The position numbers were made by a program, and so were the translations under genes. A DNA stretch of 56,652 nt, taken from contig CAZWPI010000001.1 in assembly GCA_964636055.1 (NCBI GenBank), positions 1-56,652 on the forward strand, read 5' to 3'. Position 1 is the first letter of the stretch; the number at the start of each line of letters is the position of its first letter. The notes under the pieces are model-generated. The model worked only from the letters and a program-made list of their open reading frames with translations. It had not been told where the DNA came from and did not search any database. Positions 7,569 to 22,573 of this stretch are shown here, piece by piece. This DNA is from an uncultured Candidatus Bathyarchaeia archaeon (lineage in GTDB: Archaea; Thermoproteota; Bathyarchaeia; Bathyarchaeales; Bathycorpusculaceae).

Positions 7569-8603
7569 ATGGTGGTTTTGATGAAACGGAAGGATTACCT
7601 GCAGAGTCCAGTGAAGCACATAAAAATAAACGGCACGCTGACAGTGAACCAGCTGATCCAACAGTTTCAGGGTTCAGGCTCTTTCGGGGCTGGAAGGCTC
7701 GCTCGGGCGTGCAACATTTACGAGAAAATGCTGCGAGACAAAGACTGCACCGTGTTTCTAGCTCTTTCTGGCGCCCTGGTTCCAGCGGGAATGCGCGCGC
7801 TCGTCACCGACCTCATTCGTGCAAGACTCGTCGATGTTATAGTCAGCACTGGAGCCAGCATGGTCCACGACACCATTGAAGCTTTGAATGGGCATCACTA
7901 TAAGGGAAGTTGGACCGCGGATGACCGTGAGCTTTACAGGTACCACATTTTCCGCATTTACGATGTTTTCGTTCCGGAAGAAGACTATGTGAAACTTGAT
8001 TACCAGATTTCTGAAATGTACCGGGAGATCGCGGGTGAGAGAAACGGAGAAAGCCTCTCTTCAAACGAGTTTGCGTGGGAACTGGGCAAGAGGCTCAAGG
8101 ACCCAAACTCTATTCTGCGCGCTGCGTATGAAGAAAACGTGCCCATCTTCATTCCCGCGGTCCGCGACTCGGAATTCGGCTACGTCCATCTGCTTCACGC
8201 TTCACAGGAAAACCAAAAAAACATACTAGCGGTTGACGCCTTCAAGGATGTGCCGCTTATATGCGATATCTGTGGGAAATCGCCTAAAAACGGGATGGTG
8301 GTGATTGGCGGGGGAGTGCCCAGAAACACGGTGCAATCTGCCGCCATAGCAGCCAATAAGGGCATGGACTACGCCGTGGTAATAACCATGGATCGGCCTG
8401 AAACTGGAGGCTTATCAGGTTCTACGCTTAGAGAAAGCATGAGTTGGGGAAAAGTGAGGGGAGACGCCGACAAGATCATGGTTATCGGCGATGCTTTAGT
8501 GATGTTCCCCCTGATTGTGGCTTCTGTGGTTGAGAGGCTGGGTAGCGAGTTCACGCGTACGCCGTATCTTAAACGCAGGCTTGGCACTCGGAGGAGAATG
8601 TGA
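7569..8603 (+). CDS. dys: deoxyhypusine synthase
   Basis: 344 aa; GAGRLARACNIYEKML, FLALSGALVPAGMR, VSTGASMVHD, GGGVPRN pattern of DHS. Confidence 0.92.
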   Translation: MVVLMKRKDYLQSPVKHIKINGTLTVNQLIQQFQGSGSFGAGRLARACNIYEKMLRDKDCTVFLALSGALVPAGMRALVTDLIRARLVDVIVSTGASMVHDTIEALNGHHYKGSWTADDRELYRYHIFRIYDVFVPEEDYVKLDYQISEMYREIAGERNGESLSSNEFAWELGKRLKDPNSILRAAYEENVPIFIPAVRDSEFGYVHLLHASQENQKNILAVDAFKDVPLICDICGKSPKNGMVVIGGGVPRNTVQSAAIAANKGMDYAVVITMDRPETGGLSGSTLRESMSWGKVRGDADKIMVIGDALVMFPLIVASVVERLGSEFTRTPYLKRRLGTRRRM

Positions 8604-8812
8604 TGGAAGGTGTAGAGAAAGAGAAAAGGTTCTGCGGCAACTGTGGCAGCCATAACCCGTACGAGTACCCCACGAGGATGTTCTGTTTAAAGCGCTACGC
8701 CCAAAACAAAGATCCACTAGTAGATACGCTATGGTGCTGTGGCGACTGGAATCCAGTTGTCCAAGCCTGTCACTGCGTCCGAGACGCGCTGAAGGAAAAG
8801 AACGGCGAATAA
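8603..8812 (+). CDS. small Cys-rich (zinc-ribbon-like) hypothetical protein
   Basis: CGNCGS ... WCCGDW ... CHC; start overlaps dys stop. Confidence 0.4.
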   Translation: MEGVEKEKRFCGNCGSHNPYEYPTRMFCLKRYAQNKDPLVDTLWCCGDWNPVVQACHCVRDALKEKNGE

Positions 8813-8863
8813 TGCAACGCTAAAGTTATTACGTAGAATCCGTGTTTTGATGGCATAGGCTGG

Positions 8864-8936
8864 AGCCCGGTGGTGTAGCGGTCAAGCATAGGGGCCTCTG
8901 GAGCCCTCGACGAGAGTTCGAATCTCTCCCGGGCTA
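8864..8936 (+). tRNA. tRNA-Gln (anticodon CUG)
   Basis: 73 nt folded by hand: acceptor AGCCCGG/CCGGGCT, D arm GTGT-AGCGGTCAA-GCAT, anticodon arm GGGGC-CTCTGGA-GCCCT, T arm GAGAG-TTCGAAT-CTCTC, discriminator A; no encoded CCA. Confidence 0.9.
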
Positions 8937-9724
8937 CTTTGTCCCGAGCTTGTGTTTATCATGTTTTGCTGGTTGTTTTCGCGGATTTCTTTTATCATTT
9001 GTTCCCGCAGAGCTGTTGTAAGCTGGGAGAGCTGATGGTTTTCGATTTGGCTTTGGTTGATTATGGTCATGTTTGGTCTGGTTAGGGCGTCGCGGGTTAA
9101 GATTTCTTCGGGGTTGAGTCCCCATGCGCGCATGATTTCTTTGAGGGCGTCGATTTTGGTTATTCTGGTTTTTGGTTGGATGCTTAGTCCTGATGATAGG
9201 TATATGCCTCTTAGGAATTCGGTGCCTTTCATTTTGATGTCGTGGTAGGTGCTTATGGTGTGTCCCATCATGTATTCGATGTAGTCGCGGTCTACGCCTA
9301 GTGCTGCCATTTGTGTGCGGAAGAATTTGCGTATGCTGTGGGCGCGTAGGTCGTAGCGTCTGCCTATGGGATTGGGGGTTAGGATTCCTGCTTCTATGTA
9401 GAGGTTGTGTATTATGCCGTGGAGTCGGACTGTGGTTATGGTTCTTACGTGTTTGTTGTGTCCGTCGCGGATTAGTGGGGAGTCGTCGCGGATGTTTTCT
9501 GGGGGTGTTCTGCCTCTGTAGCTGCCTTTTCTTCTGCTTTCCACGTATGCTTTGAGGTAGTCTGCGGCTTCTTGGCCTATGAATGTGTCGTAGTCGTGGT
9601 ATTTTCCTTTGGTGATTTCTGCTTCTACGTGGATGTGGATTGGGGTTATGCCTTTTTCGAGGTCGCGTTTGACGTGGCGGTATTGGAGTTTGACGAGTGT
9701 GCCTATGTGAAAGCCTCCTAGCGC
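8882..9724 (-). pseudogene. tyrosine recombinase / integrase, 5'-truncated
   Basis: LRAHSIRKFF...MGHTISTYHD (HxxR, H, Y); frame open only to 9724 with no start codon (track M at 9544 is an internal GTG); 3' end runs antisense into tRNA-Gln. Confidence 0.8.
8923..8937 (+). repeat. att core copy 1 (3' end of tRNA-Gln) TCTCTCCCGGGCTAC
   Basis: direct repeats at 21116, 21272, 22321. Confidence 0.8.
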
Positions 9725-9977
9725 TCACTGTAAGTATACCTCTTCGCGCAGGCAAAATCGCCTCACTTATGTTTTGTCAAAAAAATTACGCGAACTACTT
9801 TGAATAGATTGGGATAAAGTCTTAAAGATATATGCTGTATATGCTGTATACTGTTCTTTAAGGAACCCAAGTTGACGAATCCTATATGTACAAAGCTGAA
9901 AAACGAAATTGATGGAATAATCACCCGCAGCACAACAAAGCTTATTTCGCCACTCTTAATGCTGTTTTATCTTGAAT

Positions 9978-10997
9978 ATGTTGAAAAAAAACAAGAACCC
10001 AGTGGTTGAAAATGACTCTGTTAAGATAGGTTACGAAGCAACAATCTGCAATTTCATCAGGAACTACTTGCACCATAACTTCAACATAGGTGGAACGTTT
10101 AATGATACTTATATCAGCAGATTAAGTTCCCGACATCGTTTTTTGCGTCAAATTTCGCAAAGAAAATACGCAGTTCAAGAAGACTATTTCTCAAATGCTA
10201 AAGAATTAATTAACTATACGCAAGAGAAAATCGAAGAGCATCTGAACATGAAACTGGGCAACCTTGTCACTTTGAAAAAGCTCATCGAAAAAGACCATGA
10301 TAACAATAAAGAAATAGAAGCCCGAAGAAAATACTTGGAAAAAATACTACATGAGGACAACAGCCAGAAATTTCGAGAATTCTTGGAGGTTGGTTTCGAC
10401 AGAAAGGCTCGAGGGTTCTTAGCCATGTCATATGGCTTCGAAATATGCATGTTTTCCATATTGAAGGTTTTCTTGTTGAAGTTCGGATGTAGACTCGACC
10501 GCGACAGTAAAACATACGCTGTTGACAAAGGAGGTGACATTTCCACCAATTTCGGTGTTGTTTACCAAATTAAAAATTACTGTTTGACAAGTGAAGAGAA
10601 ATTTACGGAACTCCTGAATGAACTTTTTCTCAATTTTTCAGACGGCAGAATACAACAGGGAAACGTTTTCTTGATAGTTAAAGATGCATCCGATGGAATG
10701 ATGGCTCAACTAAAAAAGCAGAGTATTAATTGTATCACTGAAAAAAGCGTCATAGACTTGCTAGACAAACTAAATTCTGAAGAAAAACGCGAGGTCTTAA
10801 TGTCTATAGTTCGAGAATTTAACAGAGAACTACTAAGTGATGTGTGCAGAATATGCAAGAAAGCCGAAAAAGCAGAGTGCCCATACTCAGTCGGCGCTGT
10901 TTATTTTAGCCAATGCCCGTCTCCTCAGAAAAACGAGAAGCCAGCTCAAGTTTCCGACGGATTTTCTGAGAACGGAGCCATAAACAAGAAGTATTAG
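9978..10997 (+). CDS. hypothetical protein with Mrr-like PD-(D/E)xK nuclease core
   Basis: GFEICMFSILKVF...VDKGGDIS...VVYQIKNY...ELLNEL...VFLIV follows the Mrr catalytic-domain order (E, D, QxK); ATG at 9978 preferred over TTG 9972. Confidence 0.55.
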   Translation: MLKKNKNPVVENDSVKIGYEATICNFIRNYLHHNFNIGGTFNDTYISRLSSRHRFLRQISQRKYAVQEDYFSNAKELINYTQEKIEEHLNMKLGNLVTLKKLIEKDHDNNKEIEARRKYLEKILHEDNSQKFREFLEVGFDRKARGFLAMSYGFEICMFSILKVFLLKFGCRLDRDSKTYAVDKGGDISTNFGVVYQIKNYCLTSEEKFTELLNELFLNFSDGRIQQGNVFLIVKDASDGMMAQLKKQSINCITEKSVIDLLDKLNSEEKREVLMSIVREFNRELLSDVCRICKKAEKAECPYSVGAVYFSQCPSPQKNEKPAQVSDGFSENGAINKKY

Positions 10998-11026
10998 TCG
11001 TGTAGCGCTTAGAAACGACTACTATT
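10990..11026. repeat. AGAAGTAGT-family hairpin H1
   Basis: AGTATTAGTCGT-gtagcgcttagaa-ACGACTACTATT; overlaps stop of 9978..10997. Confidence 0.65.
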
Positions 11027-11181
11027 ACATTAACTCAAGTCAGCAACCAACCAAATGCACCCTGCTCAGAAAACACAACCGACAAAATTGAATTCTTATA
11101 CGCGTTGAAGCTAGCAACAATATTGATGATTCGATTTGCACGCTATTTTATAGCTCAAACGCAAAACATCTGAACTGTTTT

Positions 11182-12621
11182 TCACTTTTCTTTGTTAACA
11201 GTTGTAGTTTGAGTGTGTTTGGAGAGAATCAACGCGATTTTTTCATTATTATCCTTTAATCTACCTATTATTGATGCGACATGCTTGTGAATGTCCCTCT
11301 GTGATTTATCTATGCAATCGTTAATTTTCTTGCAATCATCTAAGCACTTCAGATTATCGTCTATGTGGCAGACTATGTCCTTGTCGTCCATTATGGCCTG
11401 CAAGTTAATTGTTTGCCTTCCAAATCGATAATTTGTCAGGTACAAATCATAAAACATCGCTAACGTGGAAGCAGCCATCTCAGGCGTTGTAATAATGACT
11501 ATGCCCAACGAATCATCAATTGTATAACCTTTAACCTTTGCTGATCTCGGCGGTTTCTTAACCGACAATATTGCCGTGGCAATCCCGTACCGGTTCATAT
11601 CCCTTTTCGTCTGCTCAAGATAATCGTTACTCCATGTATCGCTGGCTTTACTTTCAATCAATACACGGCCGATTTCTAAGTCCTGATACGAAAACTTGAC
11701 TATTATGTCCGTGGCATCTGGACCACCCAAAGGCTCAATGGCAACATTTTTGTTTGTCAAGAAAGTCTCGTTAATCAAATCGAGAAGTTCCAGCTCTGCT
11801 TTCTCACCTTTAACCGGCGCAATCTTTAGGCTCTGCAAAACAGTGTTAAGTCCGCCAGTAGCTCCTTCTATTCCACTTAAGACGTTCTTGATTTCAGCCT
11901 TAATCTCATCAATGCTCTTGCCTTGCTTAAGCAGAAGCTCGACCTTTTCCACAAGCGCCTTCATCTGCTCTTCAACAATCTCTCTCACAAACTTCTTGGT
12001 ATCTTCCTTCATTTCCGTCTGGAGCTGCTCAAGGCTCTTCTCGTGTTTCAGAAGAGTTTCAATCTTATCGACAACAATACACATTTGGCTCGATATCAGG
12101 TCCTTCACGAACTTTTCCGTATCTTCTTTTAGCGCCTTCTGAATTTCTTCAATACCTTTGCCCTGCTTGATCAAAATATCAACTTTTTCTACCAAGTAAG
12201 CCGTTTGCTCTTCAATGTTTTTCTTAACAAACTTCTCAGTTTCTTCCTTCCTCTTTTCAGTCTGCTCAACCATATCCTTCAGATAATCCTTAACAGACTT
12301 ACCCATAGATTCTTTAACGTCATCTACTGCCGAACTCATACCATCCTTGACATTCCCAAAATCACTTCGAATTTCCTTAAGCACCTGACTTACTATCTCA
12401 CGGACATCTGCACCTATCTTCATCTGTTGATCAATTGCCTTGAAAGCTTTGAGCGCAACACTCAATCGGTCATCATCTTGTAACTCAAACAACCAATCTC
12501 TGACTTCAGCGTCAATTTCAGCAAAAAAGCATGTCCGGTCAATTACTTCACAATACTTACGGCGAATTTTACGCGCCTTCCTGCTAGGAGAAACTGCAGC
12601 AGAAACCTCCAGCTTTGCCAT
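11182..12621 (-). CDS. coiled-coil protein with C-terminal PD-(D/E)xK domain (DUF2130-like)
   Basis: 479 aa; three 39-aa tandem repeats; C-terminal GGPDATDIIVKF...GRVLIESKASDTWSNDYLEQTKRDM pattern. Confidence 0.6.
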   Translation of the reverse strand: MAKLEVSAAVSPSRKARKIRRKYCEVIDRTCFFAEIDAEVRDWLFELQDDDRLSVALKAFKAIDQQMKIGADVREIVSQVLKEIRSDFGNVKDGMSSAVDDVKESMGKSVKDYLKDMVEQTEKRKEETEKFVKKNIEEQTAYLVEKVDILIKQGKGIEEIQKALKEDTEKFVKDLISSQMCIVVDKIETLLKHEKSLEQLQTEMKEDTKKFVREIVEEQMKALVEKVELLLKQGKSIDEIKAEIKNVLSGIEGATGGLNTVLQSLKIAPVKGEKAELELLDLINETFLTNKNVAIEPLGGPDATDIIVKFSYQDLEIGRVLIESKASDTWSNDYLEQTKRDMNRYGIATAILSVKKPPRSAKVKGYTIDDSLGIVIITTPEMAASTLAMFYDLYLTNYRFGRQTINLQAIMDDKDIVCHIDDNLKCLDDCKKINDCIDKSQRDIHKHVASIIGRLKDNNEKIALILSKHTQTTTVNKEK

Positions 12622-12810
12622 ACAATTTCCCTAATTAGTAAATCAAAGGTTTAAACTATAATCTTTATGAAATTATAGTATTAATAGCAAATAATGAGGC
12701 TAAATCATCAATCCTATGTTAAAAATTTGTTGAGTGTAACGCTAACAAAACCATAGAACCCCAGTTATTGCAAACATAACATGCGAAAAGCTCTCAATAA
12801 TATCCGCTTA

Positions 12811-15347
12811 TTAACTAAAACTAAGTGGCCTTGTGTAGGCAGCTATTTCTGCAAGAAACTCTGAGTTTTCGTTTTGACGAGTGTAGATAAATAGGTCTTC
12901 TTTTGCTCTGGTAACGGCAACATAGAAAAGTCTGCGTTCTTCTTCCTTTTGATCTTTTATTCCATTGTCTTCTCTTGCCACCTCAAAAATCGCTGGGTCT
13001 TCAATTTCGCTAGGAAAACCAAACTCACCTTTTACCACGTTCAAAATAAAAACAACCTTAGCCTCCAATCCTTTACATTTATGCACCGTGAGCAACCTAA
13101 CAGCGTTAGGCTCTTTGGCGTGGTCAACAGCTACTTTAAAACTGGAGGATTTCGAAGCCTCTATAAATTTTTGAACAATCTGAAAGAATCTGATTCTACC
13201 TTTAATCTTAGTTCGCATATACCGCGTAAGGATAAGAATCTCGTCTGCAGCATACCCCTTTCCTAAGTATTCGCCAATTCGCCTCAAACAATCTTGAACC
13301 GTCTCCTCAAAATACGCCTCATCCCATTTTTCCGCAGAACTGTAAACGGCGATTGGCTTAATCTCTTCAATATTTGACAGTGAGGGTTTCTGTACTTGAC
13401 TCGCGCCATTGTTTCTTATCAAATCTGCGCCAGCATCAACAATTGACTTAACGCTTCTGTAATTAGTACAGATTTTGCTTATCGCTGGATTTGCAAAGTA
13501 GTTACCAAAATTAACGAAGAAATTCAGGTTCGACCCAGAAAACCCCATTATGCTCTGCCAATCATCGCCAACGCAAAAAAGCTTGCAATCGGGATTCCGC
13601 TCAAGCAGCTTTTTAAGAAGTTTTAGCCTTTGAGCACTCATATCTTGATACTCATCTATCAGAATGTGGTCATACACATCTGCATACAAACTGCTGTCCT
13701 TCTCTAAAGCCTCAACAGCTTCGTTAATCATATCCTCAAAATCAGTCTTTTCAAATCTCTTCAACTGCATTTGATACGCCCGAAAAACCTCCAGCGCAAG
13801 CCTCCCAAACGCCAATTGCTTGCCGCTCCATCTTCCTCTCCTAAGTTTTCCTTCAATTTGCTCAGGACTTAAGCCATAAGTCTTCGCAATAGTAATAAAG
13901 TTCTGAATATCCTCGATAGGTGTCTTTTGAGAATCCCAAACCAATTCAAAATTTCTTCGTAATTCAAACGCGAAAACTCAAAACTTCGGTCTGGAAACTT
14001 TTTTTGAAGTGTCTCAAGGAGACGTTTTTTCAACAATTCATCGAACTCTTCAGGTTCTTCTGAATTATATTCGTAAGCAAAGGTTTCCATTAGAAGTCGA
14101 TTGTTTTCAGCAAACCACTTCTTTTTCTTCTCCATCGACTCGCGATATTCGTCGGTAGATTGACTGAACCATTCTGGCACTTCACCATCTTTACGAAGCC
14201 CCCAATGCTCAATGAAAACATCAAATTGAGGAAGATAAAAATCAGGTCTAAAACCACCAACGTCAGGCTCATAACCAACAAAAATCGGTTTTCCATTGAT
14301 TTTATGAGTCAGCAGGCAATCCATAATCTCTTTTTCAGCCCTGCTATTGACCTTCGTACCATTAATTGAAACGTAACTACGTTCTATTGCGTGAGCAACA
14401 ACCTCTCCCTTGTCCGCTTCAGTCGGCTCATCGTCGTTGTCATGAACAGTTTTTATGTAACGAATAAATAATCGATAAAAATCGCGATTAGTGACAATCT
14501 CTTCCTCAAAAAAACTCTTCACAAAACCAAACTTTCTGTTTTCATCAACAATGTCTGTTCTCTCTATTATCCTGCCAGAACGTTCAAGAATGTCTTTCCC
14601 AAGTTTGTGAAACGTTCTGACCCACACGTCATCGATTCCGTATCGGTCCCTTAGGCGCTGTTCGATTTGTTCCATTGCCTTTCTCTGATATGCTATTGCC
14701 AAAATCCGATTAGGCTCGACACCATCAGGTTCACGCTTAATCAAGTAGGCAATTCTAGTTATGAGCACTTCAGTTTTGCCTGAGCCTGCAGCTGCAACCA
14801 CAAGATTATGCTTGTCATCCGTAACAATCGCCGTCTGTTGCTCATCATCAAGAGAAATCAAGCCTTTCGACCATAGATGCTTATACTCATTTTTCCTCTG
14901 CTTCACAAACTCATCGTTATAGTTCATAACGGATAGTTTGCTTTTGTTGAGCGTTTTCCTAATTTCTGCAATGAATTCGGGACTAAGCACATTGTTTTCT
15001 TCGCATGCTACTATCTCCGATTCAGCTAACTCTATTCTCGAAAGACATCTTGCCTTTTTTGGATGAATTAAGTAGGTCCCACTTTCTTCTATTTCATGAG
15101 CAAACCTGCTGACTTCAGAAACATCCCCGCTTACTCTATTCCGAATTTTGTCAGTTAGTTGAGCAATTCGCCACCCATAATCTCCGCCAAACAGAAAACC
15201 AATCAGCAAAAACCTAAGAAACTTGATCCGTCTGCTTTTTTTGTAGTTTGATTTTAACTCATGTATTTCTTTCTCAAGTTCCGATAAATTCCTGGTTTCA
15301 GGTAAATTCCGCTTAGGTCCCAGTTTCTGCAAGCACATTTTCAGCAT
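12811..15347 (-). pseudogene. SF1 helicase of UvrD / helicase-IV type with embedded nuclease-like module, split by one frameshift
   Basis: AAAGSGKTEVL (Walker A), GGFRPDFYLPQFDVFIEHWG, ILIDEYQDMS, CVGDDWQSI, TNYRS, TVHKCKGLEAKVVF, FYVAVTRAKEDL; ORFs 13869..15347 and 12811..13944 overlap; frames join if the A4 run 13948..13951 were A5. Confidence 0.85.
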
Positions 15348-15573
15348 TCCAGTTTTCTATATAGTTTCACACATGGTAGAGCGATAAAGCACCCTTGGAA
15401 GTGACATAGCTTTTGCTATATCGACATAAGCATATAAAATTCGTTAAATGTAACTCATGATTGCAAATAACAGAACTAATGAAAAAGCTAATTGTCGCAA
15501 TTTGAAACGCTGTTCTCAGAGGAAATTTTTTCTTAAAACCATGCTGAAACTGGTTGAAGGAGCATTCAACTAT

Positions 15574-15609
15574 AAGTAGTAGTCGTATAGCGCTTCGCGC
15601 CGAGTACTT
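15574..15609. repeat. AGAAGTAGT-family element H2 (imperfect hairpin)
   Basis: AAGTAGTAGTCGTATAGCGCTT is 20/22 identical to H1; right arm CGAGTACTT. Confidence 0.55.
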
Positions 15610-15781
15610 CTAATTAATGCAATTTTAGAAATAGCTGACTGTAAAATATAGATCAGTATGTGCTTTCACCCAGCACCACAAACCTTGTGGATGACGAATA
15701 GAAAAACAAAGCTCTTATAGCGCGCTATAACTAACAAGCAGATCCCAGATTCTTCTAAAGCAAGCCTCCGCTGTCTTAAAC

Positions 15782-16496
15782 ATGGGGGAATTACGGTTGA
15801 AAATGAAAAAGGCGTCTAAGAAGAGGAGAAAGAAAAGTGGGAAACAGCTGACCAAAATCACTGTAAGTTCAAGATCCAAAACTTCAAAAACTTATGAAGA
15901 ATTTGCTTACATACTGGACGTTTACGACAAGAAGGATACAAGTTATGCACATGCTATCGGAGACAGATACTTCAAGCTTTTAGTTCTAAAGTTGAAGCCT
16001 TTGGATGAGAAACAATCATTGATCTTGAACCGAGTATTTATAGGCTCCTCAACGGAGCGCGACATCGTCGAAAGAGTTCAAGATAGAATAGTCTCAGCCA
16101 GAAAACTCAAAACAGGCTGGACACAATTTAAAACAGGTTGTTTATGAAATGGTTCGTGACAGATTGTTTGAGACTGAAAACAGTGGCAACGCAATTTTAC
16201 TCTTCTTTAACTTTGCCTCCCCAAGAGGTTTAAGGCAAATTGGCTTACCTAACTCAAACATTTACTCTCTAATTAAAGTTCGAGACGCGATGCTTCCAAA
16301 GAGATTCTCGAATATGCTTGAAGTAGCCCGGGCACTAAGTAAAACCGGATCAAAAGTTGACTCATATGACATAACTAAAATGATTAGGGCGAGAGTCCTC
16401 TATGAACTGGAACATGGCCAAAGTGAAGCTTTCTCTTTTCTTAGCTTTCTGGCCAATCCTGTTGACTATATTGAGAAGAATGCGGCACATATCTAA
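15782..16496 (+). pseudogene. DUF655 (COG1491)-like OB-fold / HhH protein paralog, frameshifted or split
   Basis: YEEFAYILDVYD...AIGDRYFKLLVLKLK...RVFIGS...DRI then, in the next frame, LKQVVYEMV...ILLFFNFASP follow the DUF655 order; frames join if A4 at 16109..16112 were A3. Confidence 0.5.
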
Positions 16497-16602
16497 TGCC
16501 AAACTCGGTGCGGCTTGCATCTGACGTACTTGCTTGAGATGTAAGTAATTGCGGAGAGAGGAGGTAGCTTGACGTTTTCTTTATGTTAGTAATCTTTCAA
16601 AC

Positions 16603-17262
16603 CTAAGATTCGACTTCTTTTCCTTTGTCGTGCATTTTCCACTTTCCAGTAAGTTCAGGTAAACTGCGAACTGCCTTGCGAAAAGCAGCAACAGGGCGCA
16701 TTTGACCTAGGAGAAGGTATGTATAGAAAAAGGTTGAGAACAAAGCAGCATGCTCCCAGTTTGTTGGAAGTACCGGTGCAATACAGTATCTGCACCCATT
16801 TTCTGAAACGGCTTGTATCAGATCTTTGTGACCTGCGCAACAAGCAGATAAAATGAGCAACAAAGGTCTTTCATCCTCCTTAAACTCCTTCCAAATGCCT
16901 CTTAAGTCATCAGCGTAAAGCTCTCCTCGACTCAAATCTAAATAAGTATCACCATCATCATCGACATCCCCGTGAGATGAAACATGGATTGTGTATTGAT
17001 AAGCATACTTTAAAGAGTCCACAAGGACTTTGGGACCGTATACTCTCTGCGACTGAATTTCAACTTCCTTCTTATTTTCAGCTCTTAATTGACGATTAAT
17101 AATCTCAAGATACCTCTCCAAAAAATCTATCTCAGAACACTTCTCTCTAGTTCTAACTGTGCAGTCAAGCAACAAAATAGAATTGCGAATTAATCTATAC
17201 TTTTTCTTTCGTGTTTTATGGGCTTTTTCGGCTGGACTAAGTGCTTTTCTACGTCTCCCCAA
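16603..17262 (-). CDS. minimal CHAT / caspase-fold-like peptidase
   Basis: 219 aa; His motif IHVSSHGD and Cys motif LLILSACCAGH in caspase/CHAT order; TTG start 6 nt after upstream stop. Confidence 0.55.
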   Translation of the reverse strand: MGRRRKALSPAEKAHKTRKKKYRLIRNSILLLDCTVRTREKCSEIDFLERYLEIINRQLRAENKKEVEIQSQRVYGPKVLVDSLKYAYQYTIHVSSHGDVDDDGDTYLDLSRGELYADDLRGIWKEFKEDERPLLLILSACCAGHKDLIQAVSENGCRYCIAPVLPTNWEHAALFSTFFYTYLLLGQMRPVAAFRKAVRSLPELTGKWKMHDKGKEVES

Positions 17263-17268
17263 GATTAA

Positions 17269-17748
17269 TCAACTTCCATAGGCTTTCTTAATTTTTCGAT
17301 GAATGAATTCTCGATACCAAAGTAAAGGATTTTCATTTCTCGAACTATCCATACTGAGTTTGATTAAAGGAAAAACATGTCGATATCTTGTTTCATAAAC
17401 CTTTGAGACCTCTGTGGCACGAAAGGATAGTTCAGCCAAATCGTTTTTATATTTTTCAAAAAGTTCTATTGGCGATTTTTCCTCGGTTCTAATGCGTCCG
17501 ATAAGCTCCCTACTTAGTTGTGCAAAGTCTCTCATCATTATCTGATCGCGAATATGCTCTTTGCCGAGAGAATAAGCTATTCCATAAATTATGGCTAAAT
17601 CGTTGTAACGCTGAAATCGTAGCTGACAATCACTGCAGAGGTCAAACGTCACCTTTATTGGCTTTTCAGAACTTGCGCAACGGACTATCTCGCTTCGAAG
17701 ATGTTTGCAGCAGTATTCGCACAAAACTCTTGCCTTGCTGGTGCTCAC
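17269..17748 (-). CDS. zinc-ribbon protein with helical C-terminal part
   Basis: CEYCC...CSDC at N-terminus; GTG start; co-oriented and abutting the CHAT-like gene. Confidence 0.5.
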   Translation of the reverse strand: MSTSKARVLCEYCCKHLRSEIVRCASSEKPIKVTFDLCSDCQLRFQRYNDLAIIYGIAYSLGKEHIRDQIMMRDFAQLSRELIGRIRTEEKSPIELFEKYKNDLAELSFRATEVSKVYETRYRHVFPLIKLSMDSSRNENPLLWYREFIHRKIKKAYGS

Positions 17749-17899
17749 TTTAACTCTCTTCTACAATGCTAAGTTTTTCTATAAAACGTTTAATGTATTG
17801 CCTGATCATCAGACTGAAAAGTAGGAACAAGAAATCAAGGAAATTCCGATGGTTGGGTGCTTTTAAGCATGAGCCTTAGAACGCGCCCGTAACATGCCA

Positions 17900-17942
17900 A
17901 GAAGTAGTAGTGCGCTGTGATTTTGGCTAGACTACTACTTCT
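17900..17942. repeat. AGAAGTAGT-family hairpin H3 (perfect 12-bp stem)
   Basis: AGAAGTAGTAGT-19 nt-ACTACTACTTCT between AbiEii 3' end and Zn-ribbon gene start. Confidence 0.8.
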
Positions 17943-18015
17943 AGTTTATTTTACTTAGCTTTCCTGAGAAATCACGAGAAATAAGGTATCCTTCGATCTC
18001 CAGCTTTTAAAAGCA

Positions 18016-18899
18016 TTAAACCGACTTTTTATAACTCGCCACAAATGATGCTTCTTTATGTGATTTGGAGTCTTTAATTATTCTAAGCAGGTCGCTGTCC
18101 AAGTCGCTGAGAAATGAGTATTCTGCTATAACCTTTTTAACTACTGTTGCCTCCGAGGGCAGACCTTTCCTTCTAACCAAGCGCTGAAGGTCTTCCCAGT
18201 CGTATTCGCCTCCAGAGATTTTCTCAAACAGTACATCAGGCTTGAAAGGTTCACGCACATTCCAGCACTTAAGTACTGCTAGCTTCTTCAATCTGACTTT
18301 GTCCATTGGTCTTCCTGAAAACAAATAAAGGTCGTACAAATCCCTGCTTCTAAGCCGTTGAAAGGCAGCCCTTAATTTCTCAGCCAACAGCTCTTCTTTC
18401 TGCAAACATTTTATAGAAAAACTCGGGAATTCCAGATACTTGAAATACATCTCTTCAAACTGAGGCATTTCAACAGGCGCCAATATTGGGCTCTCTCTAT
18501 AACTCACTTCCAAACTGAACTCTGAAGAATTCCATCCATGAACATAATTAATTTGAGCTAGGTAAGATTCATCATTAGCACCAAACCCACGTCTAATGTT
18601 CTCTTCCGCGATTTTGAATTTTATGCCATAATGCTGCTTATCATTCAGCAAATTAGAGAGCGCTTTCTTGAGTTCTTCCACTGAAACACCAACACTGGTA
18701 AAGTCCAAATCCATCGAAAACCGGCCACTTCCGCCGAAGAACAACTTCTTCAAGCAGGTTCCACCTTTGAAAACCAAATTTGCTAGTACATCTTAGAAAG
18801 AATTTTCAAGACGTAAGTGAGAACGACATCTCTCTCAGCCACATCTAAAGGAACGTTTGAAGATCTTGCGTAGAAATCAACAAATTTTCTCTCCAACAA
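18016..18899 (-). pseudogene. AbiEii/AbiGii-family nucleotidyltransferase toxin, one frameshift near the 5' end
   Basis: VFKGGTCLKKLFFGGSGRFSMDLDF in main ORF; upstream frame 18899..18783 encodes LLERKFVDFYARSSNVPLDVAERDVVLTYVLKILSK (typical AbiEii N-terminus); joined by adding one base at ~18793. Confidence 0.75.
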
Positions 18900-18905
18900 A
18901 CAGTC

Positions 18906-20135
18906 TCACCTTACCTCAATTTCGCTTAACAATTGCTCTTCAGAAACGTTGTTCATTACTCTCCAATCTCTAGAAAACGCCCCCCTTTTTGGTCTCCTCC
19001 TATCAAGATAAACGGTAGCATTCCCCACATAGCTTTTCAACATGATCTTCAGATGCGGAGACAATGGCTCCAGTATATCATCTTTCTCCAGAAAATCAAT
19101 AATAAAACCTAGACGCTGGACCAAAGAATGTGATTTCATTCTTAATGCGTAATCCACCAGCTTCTCTAGATTAATCTGAGGAAAACCCCTCCAAACGATT
19201 CTAGCGAGCTGCTCTATTCCCCCTGCATAATGCGGCTTGTCGAATGAGTCAATAATGGCTTTTTCAGGTTCAGCCATGCAGACCTCTGCGTCAAACACTT
19301 TTGCAGTTCGATAGCCAAAAAACTTCCTTTTTGAAAGCGTAACAAACTTGAAATTGACACTCTGCCATTCAACATCGGCCTTCTTCTTAGTCGTAGCAAT
19401 GAAATAAGTGAACGGCATCTGAGTGGTAAAGCCATAATGACTATTCGCCGTATAATAACTGAAGTAATATGGGTCAACAAAGGCAGCGCCCACAGCAAAT
19501 GCGTTTGACGGAGGAATTTTGTTTGGATAAAGACCATACGCAGATGGAACAAACTGATAAGTTCCAGTTTCGATCCTTTCAAGCCACCGTTTCTTCTCTA
19601 GACTGTGTAGGAGAACGTATGCATAGTCAAGTGTACAATTTAAAACGCTTTTAATATCGGAGGCTCGAATTATCGTCTTCTTTTCAGTTTCCCACTTAGT
19701 CACTAATCTTGCCTCGTCAGGAGACAATTTACGGATTCGCATTTGTCTCTGGCTTTCGGGAATACGTCTCAGTTTCCTTTGAGTTATTCCTAGTTCCTTA
19801 AAAGTGACAAGCCTGATAGAAAGCTGCTCTAGCTCATTCCTTATAGGCAGCGTCACACTTGAACCAACTATAACCAGTTCAAATTTCTTGAGAGTTGGAT
19901 AGATGTTGGAAATAGATGAGTATAGATTAAGAATTTTGCTTAACATAGAACGATCTATCCTATGTGAAATTACATCTACGAAAACATCCTTACCCTTGTT
20001 ATCCTTGAAATGAAAATCAATTTCGATATTCCCTGGAAGCTTTTCGTTTGTGGCAACTAGAGTGTAGTCCTTAAAGATATTCACTAACTCTCTAGAAATA
20101 TACGCTTCTAACTCATTCTTCACATCTATCACCAT
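18906..20135 (-). CDS. AbiEi-like antitoxin / transcriptional regulator with extra ~130-aa N-terminal domain
   Basis: LSPDEARLVTKWETEKKTIIRASDI...RWLERIETGTYQFVP and AIIDSFDKPHYAGGIEQLARIV match the AbiEi pattern; immediately upstream of AbiEii. Confidence 0.7.
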   Translation of the reverse strand: MVIDVKNELEAYISRELVNIFKDYTLVATNEKLPGNIEIDFHFKDNKGKDVFVDVISHRIDRSMLSKILNLYSSISNIYPTLKKFELVIVGSSVTLPIRNELEQLSIRLVTFKELGITQRKLRRIPESQRQMRIRKLSPDEARLVTKWETEKKTIIRASDIKSVLNCTLDYAYVLLHSLEKKRWLERIETGTYQFVPSAYGLYPNKIPPSNAFAVGAAFVDPYYFSYYTANSHYGFTTQMPFTYFIATTKKKADVEWQSVNFKFVTLSKRKFFGYRTAKVFDAEVCMAEPEKAIIDSFDKPHYAGGIEQLARIVWRGFPQINLEKLVDYALRMKSHSLVQRLGFIIDFLEKDDILEPLSPHLKIMLKSYVGNATVYLDRRRPKRGAFSRDWRVMNNVSEEQLLSEIEVR

Positions 20136-20472
20136 CTATCGAATAACTACTTACTAGCAACACCATTATATTTTTTTCGTATTTCCTTAGTAGATTCTAC
20201 ACATTATACTAAGATTATCAGAAATAAAAATAATAACAGACAATCCCCTTGAAACCCCTAGAAAAATAGACTCTAGTACAAATCTAATCTACGCCCCCCT
20301 TCTTTAATACCAAAGATTCTAGCATTTCAGACTACCAACAAATCAAACAACAAAAACACATAATGGAATACCAGATACGAAAATGATAAGTTATGGTGGA
20401 AAACTCACCACTCAATCGACTAGAATAGAAACTACCTCCGATTTTATGCTAGTGCTTCTGTAAACAAATGTT

Positions 20473-21015
20473 TTACTGTGTTGTTCTCCCATCACGAGTG
20501 TACTCACTGATTCGTTCAGCCAAGAAGTAAAATCTTGGCACGGTACGTTGAGGATTAGCCACAATTTTGCCTTTACGCCTCAAACGCAATATGATCCTGC
20601 GAAAAGCGTCGTGTTTTAACTCTAGAAAGTCTCGATAACTGAATTCCCGCGTTAAATCTCTCGCCTTGTTAAGAACATACGCTTCAAAAAGAGCACTATT
20701 AATTGTTTTCTGGAACTCTTTTCTTACACAACTTAAGTTGTAGGGCTCTCGGCGAGGCTTGGAAACCTGATACTGAAAAACGTTATTCTGCTGAATATTC
20801 ACAACCTGCTGCCCATTGCGAACTTGGGCTGCGCCTTCAATGCCTTTCATAAAGGAATCAGTCAAGCTAAGCGTCAGGTGGCACACGTCCATGCCGTTGT
20901 CTTTAGCCCACTGAACATAAGCCTTCCACCGCTGAAACTGCTTCAGGTTAGGAGCACGAAAATTGCAGATAAGATTCTTAGGCTGAACAACTGAAACTGC
21001 ATGGTCCCTAACCAT
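20473..21015 (-). CDS. hypothetical protein (possible wHTH at C-terminus)
   Basis: 180-aa ATG ORF at the right end of the element. Confidence 0.45.
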   Translation of the reverse strand: MVRDHAVSVVQPKNLICNFRAPNLKQFQRWKAYVQWAKDNGMDVCHLTLSLTDSFMKGIEGAAQVRNGQQVVNIQQNNVFQYQVSKPRREPYNLSCVRKEFQKTINSALFEAYVLNKARDLTREFSYRDFLELKHDAFRRIILRLRRKGKIVANPQRTVPRFYFLAERISEYTRDGRTTQ

Positions 21016-21115
21016 AAAAACTCAGCCTCACAAATTCGCAAAAAATAGAAAAAAGAGGCAGATGCTTTGTTTTCCCGAGGCTCAAATCGTATGAATTCAT
21101 GCCTAGGCGCCCGTA

Positions 21116-21130
21116 TCTCCCGGGCTACCA
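21116..21130 (+). repeat. att core copy 2 (TCTCCCGGGCTAC + CA)
   Basis: 13/13 match to the tRNA-Gln 3' end; discriminator A followed by CCA. Confidence 0.7.
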
Positions 21131-21159
21131 TTGTCTTCTGTTAGTTGGGTTTTTTGTTT

Positions 21160-21198
21160 AGAAGTAGTTGTGAGGGGTTGCTTAGCACAACATCTTCT
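21160..21198. repeat. AGAAGTAGT-family hairpin H4
   Basis: AGAAGTAGTTGTG-13 nt-CACAACATCTTCT (11 of 13 pairs) inside the 145-bp scar. Confidence 0.6.
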
Positions 21199-21271
21199 TA
21201 GGGATTGAGCTGTTTTTTGTGTTTTGGTTTTTGAATTGATTTGGGTTTGTGTTTCAGAAGTGGAAGTTGTC

Positions 21272-21286
21272 TCTCTCCCGGGCTAC
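21272..21286 (+). repeat. att core copy 3 TCTCTCCCGGGCTAC
   Basis: 15/15 identical to 8923..8937. Confidence 0.8.
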
Positions 21287-21566
21287 ATCAACCCTAGTCA
21301 GGACGACTTTCAAAAAACATTCCTGTTAGTGTTTGCGTTGAGTCGATTATATATCGAGAGGGTTCTAGTTTCCGTCAGACTACTTGGATATTAACGCATA
21401 TTAATCTAATAGGTAAATGAATTTCCAGCTTTTCTTGAGCGGCGACCGACTAAACCGCAAGCTCTAAGCGTTTGGGTTGAGTGTGTTCTGAACCCAAATT
21501 GGTTCAAGGACGGGCAAACGCGCTCCTAAAAAAATTTGCTACGTTAGTTGGCTAGATTTGAATTTT

Positions 21567-21815
21567 TTATTTTATTTGTACGATTTTCTGGTTTTCAATT
21601 ATGACTGATAGTATTTCTGATTGCTTCACGGCTTCTGTTAGTTGTGGTTCTAGGGTTTTTTCGTATTTAAAGGAGTATCGCTGTGGTTCGTCAGTAGCTG
21701 GGTCCGCTTCAAAGATGGGGAAGTCTCTTTTCCAAAAAGTTATTCTGCGGCATATCAATTGTTTCTTGTCGGTGTTTATTGCTTCTATGTTTATTGTCCA
21801 GTTGCTTAATTGCAT
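21567..21815 (-). CDS. hypothetical protein (82 aa)
   Basis: ORF only; lies in the ~1-kb scar between att copies 3 and 4. Confidence 0.3.
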   Translation of the reverse strand: MQLSNWTINIEAINTDKKQLICRRITFWKRDFPIFEADPATDEPQRYSFKYEKTLEPQLTEAVKQSEILSVIIENQKIVQIK

Positions 21816-22320
21816 TCATTCTCCCTCGGCGTATTGAATCTTACGAGATAGTTTTATTTAAACTTCTCGTTACAAATGCAGTGAAAGTTGGAGGTACAAC
21901 AATTTAACATTAGAACAATGGAACAGTAGAACAAAACAACACTTTGAGGTTTCGATGTCAAACTTGCTTACAATCTGAAGATACTTGGAGTGAGTTGAAT
22001 GTGAGACGATAAATTCTAAGCAAAAATGGAAACTTGGGCAATATTTGCTGAGAATAAAATAGCAGCTAATTTGTTTTTTTGGGGGTAATCGCGAAAAGAT
22101 TGACATTTGAGAGGGTCATGATTTTTTTACGAATCCATTTTGGTTCGGGGCCGTCATTCTTGTGCAGATTATTTAGAAATCATATCAGGAGAATAACGTG
22201 TTGGCCAAAATTCTCGAACTCTCGCCTGAATAGCGAAAATGCGAGTAAAATCTATTCGTTTCGATCGCAATCAAGCTAGTTCTTGCTCGCACATTGATAG
22301 GATGCGAAAAAGTTTGAAGC

Positions 22321-22348
22321 GAGTGTTTGAAGCTATCCCGGGCTACCA
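22321..22348 (+). repeat. att copy 4: diverged T-arm + acceptor 3' strand of tRNA-Gln plus CCA
   Basis: GAGTGTTTGAAGCTATCCCGGGCTA matches tRNA 8912..8936 at 21 of 25 positions; followed by CCA and a T-rich tract. Confidence 0.7.
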
Positions 22349-22573
22349 ACAATACGCTTTTGTTTAGATACCGCGTGCAACTTAAACCGCTTCAGTTTCG
22401 GCGTGAAAAGAGTGTGATTATAGTGAAGCATAGTAGTCTTGAGCGTAATGCTTTTGAATCGAATTCTGAATATGCATGATTAGCTCTAATTACTCCGTCT
22501 TCACAGGAGTTAAATATGATAATCACAGAACCGTTTTTCAGCGCAAATACGATACAGAAATGGCTGAATAAAC

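Follow-up and report, generated by a model that had tools for sequence, protein, structure and literature searches.

Described Systems Closest to the Locus

The family DUF2130 (PF09903, COG4487) has counted among the PD-(D/E)XK superfamily since a survey of 2012, which gave its function as unknown and listed one member from archaea, in the genus Methanocella (Steczkiewicz et al. 2012, PMC3424549). ShdA of the Shield system is a nuclease with an RmuC domain, and this single protein suffices for anti-phage defence (Macdonald et al. 2023, PMC10270631). Gabija combines the OLD-family nuclease GajA with the UvrD-like helicase GajB. These and other described systems were compared with three neighbouring genes flagged at positions 9978–15347 of a 56,652-nt stretch of DNA (the window) from an uncultured Candidatus Bathyarchaeia archaeon (GenBank assembly GCA_964636055.1, contig CAZWPI010000001.1). 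The genes encode a superfamily 1 (SF1) helicase, a 479-amino-acid (aa) protein and a homologue of HaeII-family restriction endonucleases. A sequence-only reading of the window had proposed that the three form a defence module built around a helicase–nuclease pair of the Gabija kind. Our analysis indicates that the region belongs to a decaying integrative island carrying a mosaic of independently acquired single-gene units, a reading to which we assign a probability of about 0.72.

The 479-aa protein shares with the DUF2130 proteins a PD-(D/E)xK core preceded by a helical N-terminal region. It differs from them in length (479 aa versus about 350–420), in an extra N-terminal domain with a Cys pair and in its 40-aa repeats. 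One branch of its homologues comes from Methanocella. As a single PD-(D/E)xK-superfamily nuclease protein found in defence islands, the solitary 479-aa gene may be an analogue of the gene for ShdA. However, ShdA is membrane-bound and has an RmuC domain, whereas the 479-aa protein has neither (no match to RmuC (PF02646) was obtained at E ≤ 1, and our own inspection showed no hydrophobic segment).

The likeness to Gabija lies in a UvrD-like helicase gene that adjoins a nuclease gene and in PADLOC matches to GajB on both halves of the helicase, which is encoded by two open reading frames (ORFs). These are generic UvrD matches, the best being to RTasHel; no GajA (ATPase-TOPRIM/OLD) was found by PADLOC among the 10 neighbouring proteins scanned, and the adjacency is not conserved. 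Gabija or any other named system was therefore rejected. The best-scoring named family for the helicase was E. coli DNA helicase IV (HelD; NF008276), the model of which covers most of the motor, but the window family has a Vsr/EDxHD-like insert of ~170 aa at the model gap from ~287 to 391. The best structural matches of this insert are Vsr, I-Bth0305I and the DUF559-like NGO0050, and it has invariant acidic and His residues. It differs from the Vsr-type proteins in that it is embedded in an SF1 helicase and has no sequence-level match in Pfam or the PDB. The third protein is 31–36% identical to proteins named as HaeII family (E~1e-31). In contrast to the HaeII system (PF09554), its gene is frameshifted and has no adjacent methyltransferase, either here or in two other contexts.

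The Flagged Genes Lie on a Decaying Island at tRNA-Gln

The flagged region is the left half of an integrative island of about 12.2 kb, and all three flagged genes are inside it. The island occupies positions 8938–21128, plus a 158-bp remnant up to 21286, at the 3' end of a tRNA-Gln gene (Table 1). The host is placed in Bathyarchaeia (MCG) by its ribosomal protein S5, which falls into a 90% cluster with Bathyarchaeota/MCG entries. It is bounded by direct repeats of 13–15 nt; when the whole window was searched, the 13-mer TCTCCCGGGCTAC occurred at 8925, 21116 and 21274 only. The GC content was 0.38–0.41 within the island versus 0.45–0.52 in the flanking windows. The features by which tRNA-integrated genomic islands are recognised were all found, namely repeats of the tRNA end at both borders, an integrase (as a fragment) and an empty site in relatives. 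An Rfam search over 8000–22500 returned nothing besides the tRNA. Neither the helicase nor the 479-aa protein has a relative in the IMG/VR viral contigs, so a viral origin is unsupported.

The presence of the island was examined by comparing sequencing depth in four samples of one study, X1 (the source-like run), X2, X22 and X23. In X1 the depth was 33 over the island and 33–41 over the flanks. The corresponding values were about 5 and 16–30 in X2, about 0 and 21–29 in X22, and 0 and 2 in X23. The empty site itself was recovered: a contig of X22 joins the tRNA straight to 21116 and onward, and a contig of X23 joins 8937 to 21290. The island is rare or absent in the sibling samples. Structural variants were also seen in X2 to the right of the island, with joints 21314->22307 and 8937->22193. 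Together with the 158-bp remnant between the repeat copies, these joints suggest repeated integration and excision at tRNA-Gln.

The island is decaying, with its cargo genes breaking down one by one. Four genes are damaged: the integrase gene is a stump, and the HaeII-like gene, the helicase gene and the AbiEii gene carry a frameshift each. The 479-aa gene is intact. About 170 N-terminal residues of the integrase are gone, with an in-frame stop upstream (three-frame translation), and in a tblastn comparison the fragment matched residues 173–271 and 205–321 only of the integrases of two other loci, L004 and L044. In the HaeII-like gene, one extra A in the A8 run at 9984–9991 displaces the frame; the first ~38 codons of its homologues are present in the window at 9872–9990 in another frame, and the visible ORF is a remnant with an internal start. 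The AbiEii ORF also starts internally. Its first ~35 codons lie just upstream in the other frame, ending in a stop (three-frame translation), and the usual AbiEii N-terminus, FVDFYARSSNVPLDVAERDVVLTYVLKIL, is encoded there.

The lesion of the helicase gene is a 1-nt deletion between 13944 and 13945. An extra base behind 13944 is present in X2, otherwise identical, and in the divergent relatives X3 and X7, and in X1 the deletion was seen at a depth of 33. A frameshift in the T-run at 13948–13951 was ruled out, because the contigs of X2, X3 and X7 put the missing base at 13944/13945. The intact helicase reads ...EEILKLVWDSQK... and has 845 aa.

An independent Logan contig of X1 corresponds to 9590–22346 of the window without a single difference, which makes mistakes in the deposited assembly an unlikely source of the frameshifts. 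As the housekeeping genes of the window are also intact and match database clusters exactly, the explanation of the frameshifts as assembly artefacts is disfavoured. Relative to the window, the copy of the island in X2 (depth about 5) lacks 9 nt at 9829 and one base each at 10772, in the HaeII-like gene, and at 18239, in AbiEii; at this low depth, these differences should be read with caution. The helicase base behind 13944 is present in this copy. This pattern, seen at low depth, suggests that different genes may be broken in different populations.

Linkage of the Three Genes in Other Genomes

For the study of gene linkage, 96 loci with homologues of the 479-aa protein were fetched, including 10 genome loci, 76 metagenome loci and the contigs of single proteins. 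Contexts were counted after the removal of duplicates and with at least 1 kb of upstream sequence required, which gave 34 contexts for the close branch of homologues and 9 for the distant branch. A helicase stood beside the 479-aa homologue in one of the 34 close-branch contexts (L017/L051, one shared context) and in none of the 9 distant ones. The HaeII-like gene was absent from all fetched loci by tblastn. The trio is not a conserved system, and each family is found elsewhere without the other two. The three-gene module proposed by the sequence-only reading thus fails on the linkage of its homologues (helicase in 1/34, HaeII-like gene in 0) and on the missing GajA-type partner. In the window, moreover, frameshifts have broken two of the three. 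What stands of the proposed defence setting is a mobile, defence-island-like element with AbiE and CHAT genes.

The nearest relatives of the 479-aa gene and of the helicase gene have other neighbours. The contigs L109–L114, with 91% DNA identity to the 479-aa gene, adjoin a radical-SAM/PqqD cluster and have no helicase beside the gene. The nearest relative of the helicase is in L098 (86% identity), and the similarity of the two loci (88%) extends from 15473 to 12809, i.e., from 126 nt upstream of the start to 2 nt past the stop. In L098, a gene for a Cas4-like PDDEXK_1 nuclease (L098:8441-9202) lies 80 nt 3' of the helicase gene, and a second helicase of 1260 aa is near. Helicase homologues are mostly solitary. 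Of five contexts read in addition to L017/L051, L098 with its Cas4-like PDDEXK_1 gene is one, ribosomal-protein genes adjoin the helicase in two, and in the other two it is otherwise solitary.

In the window, 189 nt separate the stop codon of the helicase from the start of the 479-aa gene, which confirms the spacing claimed, and the HaeII-like gene converges on the 479-aa gene. The L017/L051 context shows the same order, the same strand and a gap of ~180 nt, at protein identities of 59% and 72%. The junction DNA of the window and of L051 could not be aligned beyond the nuclease's own upstream motif, and a shared origin of the two junctions was rejected for this reason. As the nearest relatives of each window gene also lack the partner, two independent juxtapositions are likelier than an inherited pair.

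A two-gene unit, in which the gene for an unknown 350-aa protein overlaps a 170-aa DUF6036 gene by 11 nt, was observed in three loci with 57–75% identity. It stands next to a 479-aa homologue in L004:7987-9547, next to a helicase homologue in L098:831-2385 and next to a HaeII-like homologue in L106:2426-3980. Its recurrence beside all three families points to a common pool from which islands draw their cargo. The window itself lacks the unit.

The 479-aa Protein

A search yielded 118 close homologues of the 479-aa protein with 39–97% identity, mostly unnamed. The subfamily is rare, with 10 loci among 185,579 species genomes, and mostly archaeal (Bathyarchaeia). The protein had been read as a long coiled coil with a nuclease core, PD...ESK, at its C-terminus; an extended helical region and this core were both confirmed. 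The residues D305, E323 and K325 are invariant in 39/39 aligned homologues, as are Q337 and D341. The AlphaFold2 (AF2) model had a predicted local distance difference test (pLDDT) score of 60 overall, which is moderate, and of 70–88 over the C-terminal domain. The modelled core has the classic restriction-endonuclease topology (H274-287, E293-297, E306-312, E315-324, H332-345, E349-353), and the alpha-beta-beta-beta-alpha-beta order, in which strands 2 and 3 carry D...(D/E)xK, places the protein in the PD-(D/E)xK superfamily. A Foldseek search with this core returned EcoT38I (prob 0.99) and also the DdmD nuclease, Cap4 and Bax1. The profile of the protein found nothing meaningful among PDB sequences, and fold comparison alone was informative. 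Between pairs of the 40-residue repeats, 17–22 of the 40 positions are identical, and homologues have between 1 and 3 copies.

The window protein gave no match to PF09903.14 at E ≤ 1 (gathering threshold 26.7 bits), and 5 of 39 subfamily members did match. For most of its homologues, precomputed PF09903.15 matches are listed. A tblastn comparison of the protein with loci L076–L087 gave E-values from 1e-57 to 1e-70. One protein of the distant branch, encoded at L083:7923-9053 and 36–45% identical to the 479-aa protein, scored 35.6 bits, above the DUF2130 gathering score. When the subfamily profile was run against 1.84 billion representatives, 241 proteins were retrieved; the nearest 10 were scanned, and 10/10 passed DUF2130 with 31.5–63.3 bits. 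By this chain of transitive homology, the 479-aa protein can be solidly assigned to DUF2130, and the likeness to this family claimed from the sequence is upheld. PADLOC gave weak matches over the helical region and matched no other defence model.

The similarity to L109–L114 found by blastn runs from 12709 to 11182 only, i.e., it covers the gene and 88 nt upstream of it. The alignment of this upstream region showed a conserved ATTAATA...TTCATAAAGATTATAG motif, and the 88 nt are presumably the gene's own promoter. Elsewhere, the neighbours of the 479-aa homologues include integrases, HepT/MNT and ParE toxin–antitoxin genes, type II methyltransferases and HerA/NurA-like genes. In L002:5834-9608, a close homologue lies directly 3' of a NurA-like gene (weak match) and a HerA ATPase gene.

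The distant DUF2130 branch (36–45% identity) stands in a fixed operon in L083:6894-12829 and also in L077, L080, L082 and L084–L087. The order is a ~340-aa unknown protein, DUF2130, an 820–920-aa unknown protein and, in convergent orientation, an N6_N4 type II methyltransferase. Neither unknown protein gave a match in Pfam or PADLOC. This operon may be an undescribed restriction-like system.

The Helicase and Its Nuclease-Like Insert

The ORF scan returned the four ORFs of the flagged region at the positions claimed for them. The two that were thought to be halves of one frameshifted SF1 helicase matched Pfam PF00580 (UvrD-helicase) with E-values of 6e-24 and 9e-24, and PF13361 (UvrD_C) was matched with 1e-22. 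Both halves align collinearly with an unbroken homologue of 845 aa in L051, so the window gene is one helicase with a frameshift. The split and the identity of the gene were thus correctly read from the sequence; its length is 845 aa and not ~865 aa. The protein has the features of the UvrD/Rep group of SF1, with the Walker A motif GSGKT at residue 188. The best NCBIfam model for both halves was DNA helicase IV, with 170.3 and 102 bits versus an equivalog cut-off of 543. Homologues are numerous (488 at E ≤ 1e-10), come from Bathyarchaeia metagenomes and bear the JGI label "DNA helicase IV".

A nuclease-like insert marked by FRPDF...IEHWG had been noted within the helicase, and structure prediction agrees with it. 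The AF2 model of the insert had a pLDDT of 89.8, and Foldseek matched it to the catalytic domain of I-Bth0305I, an EDxHD homing endonuclease (3r3p; prob 1.00, TMt 0.72), NGO0050 (3hrl; prob 0.96) and Vsr (1vsr; prob 0.72). Four residues of the helicase do not vary in 42 homologues, namely E338, D369, E380 and H381 (E43, D74, E85 and H86 in the numbering of the insert). PADLOC PD-DEXK models matched the insert with E~1e-7. When compared alone with Pfam and with PDB sequences, the insert gave nothing meaningful. On the basis of its model, the insert is a nuclease-fold domain of the Vsr-like branch of the superfamily, and it may be catalytically competent.

The hydrophobic segment claimed for the N-terminus of the helicase reaches a Kyte–Doolittle value of 1.04 and falls short of a membrane helix in both length and hydrophobicity; the membrane anchoring of the window helicase is therefore unsupported. 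A value of 1.6, i.e., a membrane-type N-terminal helix, was reached by 15/97 full-length homologues, among them P0130, P0131, P0133, P0134, P0138, P0139 and P0144. The remaining homologues, including the one in the window, have the short LLIGFLFG motif only.

The HaeII-Like Protein

The protein that converges on the other two had been described as a 339-aa nuclease of the Mrr type. The convergence and the assignment to the PD-(D/E)xK nucleases hold, and the protein appears to belong to the HaeII family instead of Mrr. No match to Mrr_cat (PF04471) was obtained at E ≤ 5, and the sole nuclease match was RE_HaeII (PF09554), at E=0.002 and 17.9 bits with a cut-off of 25. PADLOC gave a weak REase_II match. 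Scans of the island ORFs (ORF scan, Pfam, NCBIfam and PADLOC) revealed no methyltransferase. The loci L102–L108, which represent two contexts of HaeII-like genes, have no methyltransferase, helicase or DUF2130 gene.

Interpretation of the Island and Its Alternatives

On the preferred reading, the cargo of the decaying island is a mosaic of independently acquired units, namely the HaeII homologue, the DUF2130 protein, the helicase with its insert, the CHAT protein and the AbiEi/AbiEii pair, each with its own upstream region. The 479-aa protein would work without a partner, cutting DNA in conflict or defence, as the analogy with ShdA and the island-like neighbours of its homologues suggest. Its helical arm, built from the repeats, may serve in spacing or in oligomerisation. 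For the helicase family, a general role in processing or repairing DNA as a helicase-nuclease of Bathyarchaeia is more likely, given its hundreds of homologues, often in housekeeping neighbourhoods, and the copy on the island would be a dispensable extra.

Several points weigh against this reading. By our own rough estimate, ~0.03 recurrences of the L017/L051 kind would be expected under free assortment, and 2 were observed, in which the two genes keep their order, their orientation and a spacing of ~180 nt at no more than 59% and 72% identity. The slot 3' of the helicase in L098 holds a different PD-(D/E)xK nuclease, which hints at a facultative helicase–nuclease partnership. It should be added that the defence role of the 479-aa protein is one that we infer, its PADLOC matches being weak and over the helical region, and that the helicase contexts read amount to six distinct ones.

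The alternative that survives best, although we consider it unlikely, is that the helicase and the 479-aa nuclease form a defence module of two genes with facultative pairing. The helicase-nuclease would move along foreign DNA or unwind it, the nuclease with the helical arm would cut it, and the nuclease slot would be exchangeable, e.g., for a Cas4-like protein. The agreement of the window with L017/L051 and the PDDEXK_1 gene 80 nt downstream of the L098 helicase fit such a module, as does the location of both genes in a mobile island with other defence cargo. However, the helicase is missing in 33/34 close-branch contexts, and the nearest relatives of both genes (L109–L114 for the nuclease, L098 for the helicase) stand without the partner. 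The nuclease has its own conserved upstream region, the junctions of the window and L051 cannot be aligned, and helicase homologues are found alone beside ribosomal operons. Moreover, the helicase is broken in the source population and the nuclease is intact.

Far less probable is a housekeeping role in DNA repair without a part in conflict, in the manner of helicase IV and an RmuC-like recombination nuclease. Helicase IV is the best NCBIfam match, both proteins have a repair-like domain make-up, and the 488 helicase homologues (E ≤ 1e-10) sometimes stand amid ribosomal and tRNA-synthetase genes. However, all three genes are on an island that sibling populations lack, and the scores of the helicase halves (170 and 102 bits) are far under the 543-bit cut-off for helicase IV. 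The rarity of the 479-aa subfamily (10 loci/185,579 species genomes), the context of which differs almost every time, argues against a core repair role for this gene. The weakest proposal, a degenerate restriction–modification system in which the HaeII enzyme restricts, a lost or distant methyltransferase protects and the helicase and DUF2130 protein are accessory, can draw on the HaeII-family homology and on the N6_N4 type II methyltransferases near DUF2130 homologues in several loci (fixed in the distant-branch operon), but is highly improbable with no methyltransferase ORF in the island, none adjoining the HaeII-like homologues of L102–L108, and a HaeII-like gene that is frameshifted here and was never found with the other two.

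Beyond the mosaic island that we prefer, a broader proposal is tentative and rather doubtful. The archaeal DUF2130 subfamily may be a new nuclease of Bathyarchaeia directed against mobile elements, itself spread horizontally as a stand-alone single gene with a promoter of its own. With its arm of 1–3 repeats, it would act alone or dock facultatively on the helicase with the Vsr-like insert. If this were true, it would be the first function for DUF2130, and the distant branch would be an undescribed four-gene restriction-like system (340 aa, DUF2130, ~900 aa, N6/N4 methyltransferase).

The analysis removes a false lead, as there is no new three-gene immune system here. It documents a small tRNA-integrated island in uncultured Bathyarchaeia, the presence of which varies among sibling populations and the cargo of which decays stepwise. 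The novelty is low, the families and the kind of element being known, but two uncharacterised families are worth following. These are the archaeal DUF2130 subfamily as a mobile single-gene cassette and an unstudied UvrD-like helicase with an internal Vsr-like domain.

Feature Coordinates and Other Cargo

Table 1. Features of the island and its borders, with positions in the window.
Feature	Position	Strand	Remarks
tRNA-Gln(CTG)	8864..8937	+	ARAGORN; Rfam tRNA 59.6 bits
Left attachment repeat	8923/8925-8937		tRNA 3' end, TCTCTCCCGGGCTAC
Tyrosine-recombinase (integrase) C-terminal fragment	8882..9544	-	overlaps tRNA 3' end; weak Pfam Phage_integrase and Phage_integr_3 matches
HaeII-family restriction-endonuclease homologue	9872..10997	+	remnant ORF 9972/9978-10997: 341 aa, 339 aa from ATG at 9978
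479-aa archaeal DUF2130-subfamily protein (assigned by homology)	11182..12621	-	intact; Cys pair C24, C31; conserved helical domain about residues 38-90; conserved C-terminal helical region
Predicted PD-(D/E)xK nuclease core of the 479-aa protein	11422-11814	-	about residues 270-400; D305, E323, K325 (E323-x-K325)
Tandem helical repeats of the 479-aa protein	11887-12246	-	three repeats of 40 aa, residues 126-245
88-nt upstream region travelling with the 479-aa gene	12622..12709	-	AT-rich, TATA-like motifs
UvrD/helicase-IV-like SF1 helicase	12811..15347	-	845 aa read through; two ORFs, 12811-13944 (377 aa) and 13869-15347 (492 aa)
Predicted Vsr/EDxHD-like nuclease insert in helicase	13959..14462	-	residues 296-463; FRPDF at residue 366, IEHWG at residue 379
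CHAT-domain protein	16603-17262	-	219 aa; Pfam CHAT E=7e-6, above gathering score
Cys-rich ORF	17269-17748	-	159 aa; precedes CHAT gene on the same strand
AbiEii toxin	18016-18777	-	Pfam AbiEii 8.6e-29, PADLOC AbiEii 2e-52
AbiEi-like antitoxin	18906-20135	-	weak AbiEi matches; gene looks intact
Island right end	21116..21286	+	two more copies of the tRNA 3'-end repeat, 21116-21128 and 21272/21274-21286, around the 158-bp remnant

The CHAT gene and the Cys-rich 159-aa ORF may form a small two-gene conflict module, to which PADLOC gave no match. At 15782-16496, ORFs of 121 and 115 aa abut at a 1-nt offset, the first with a weak DUF655 match (E=0.025), and this pair may be another gene split by a frameshift.

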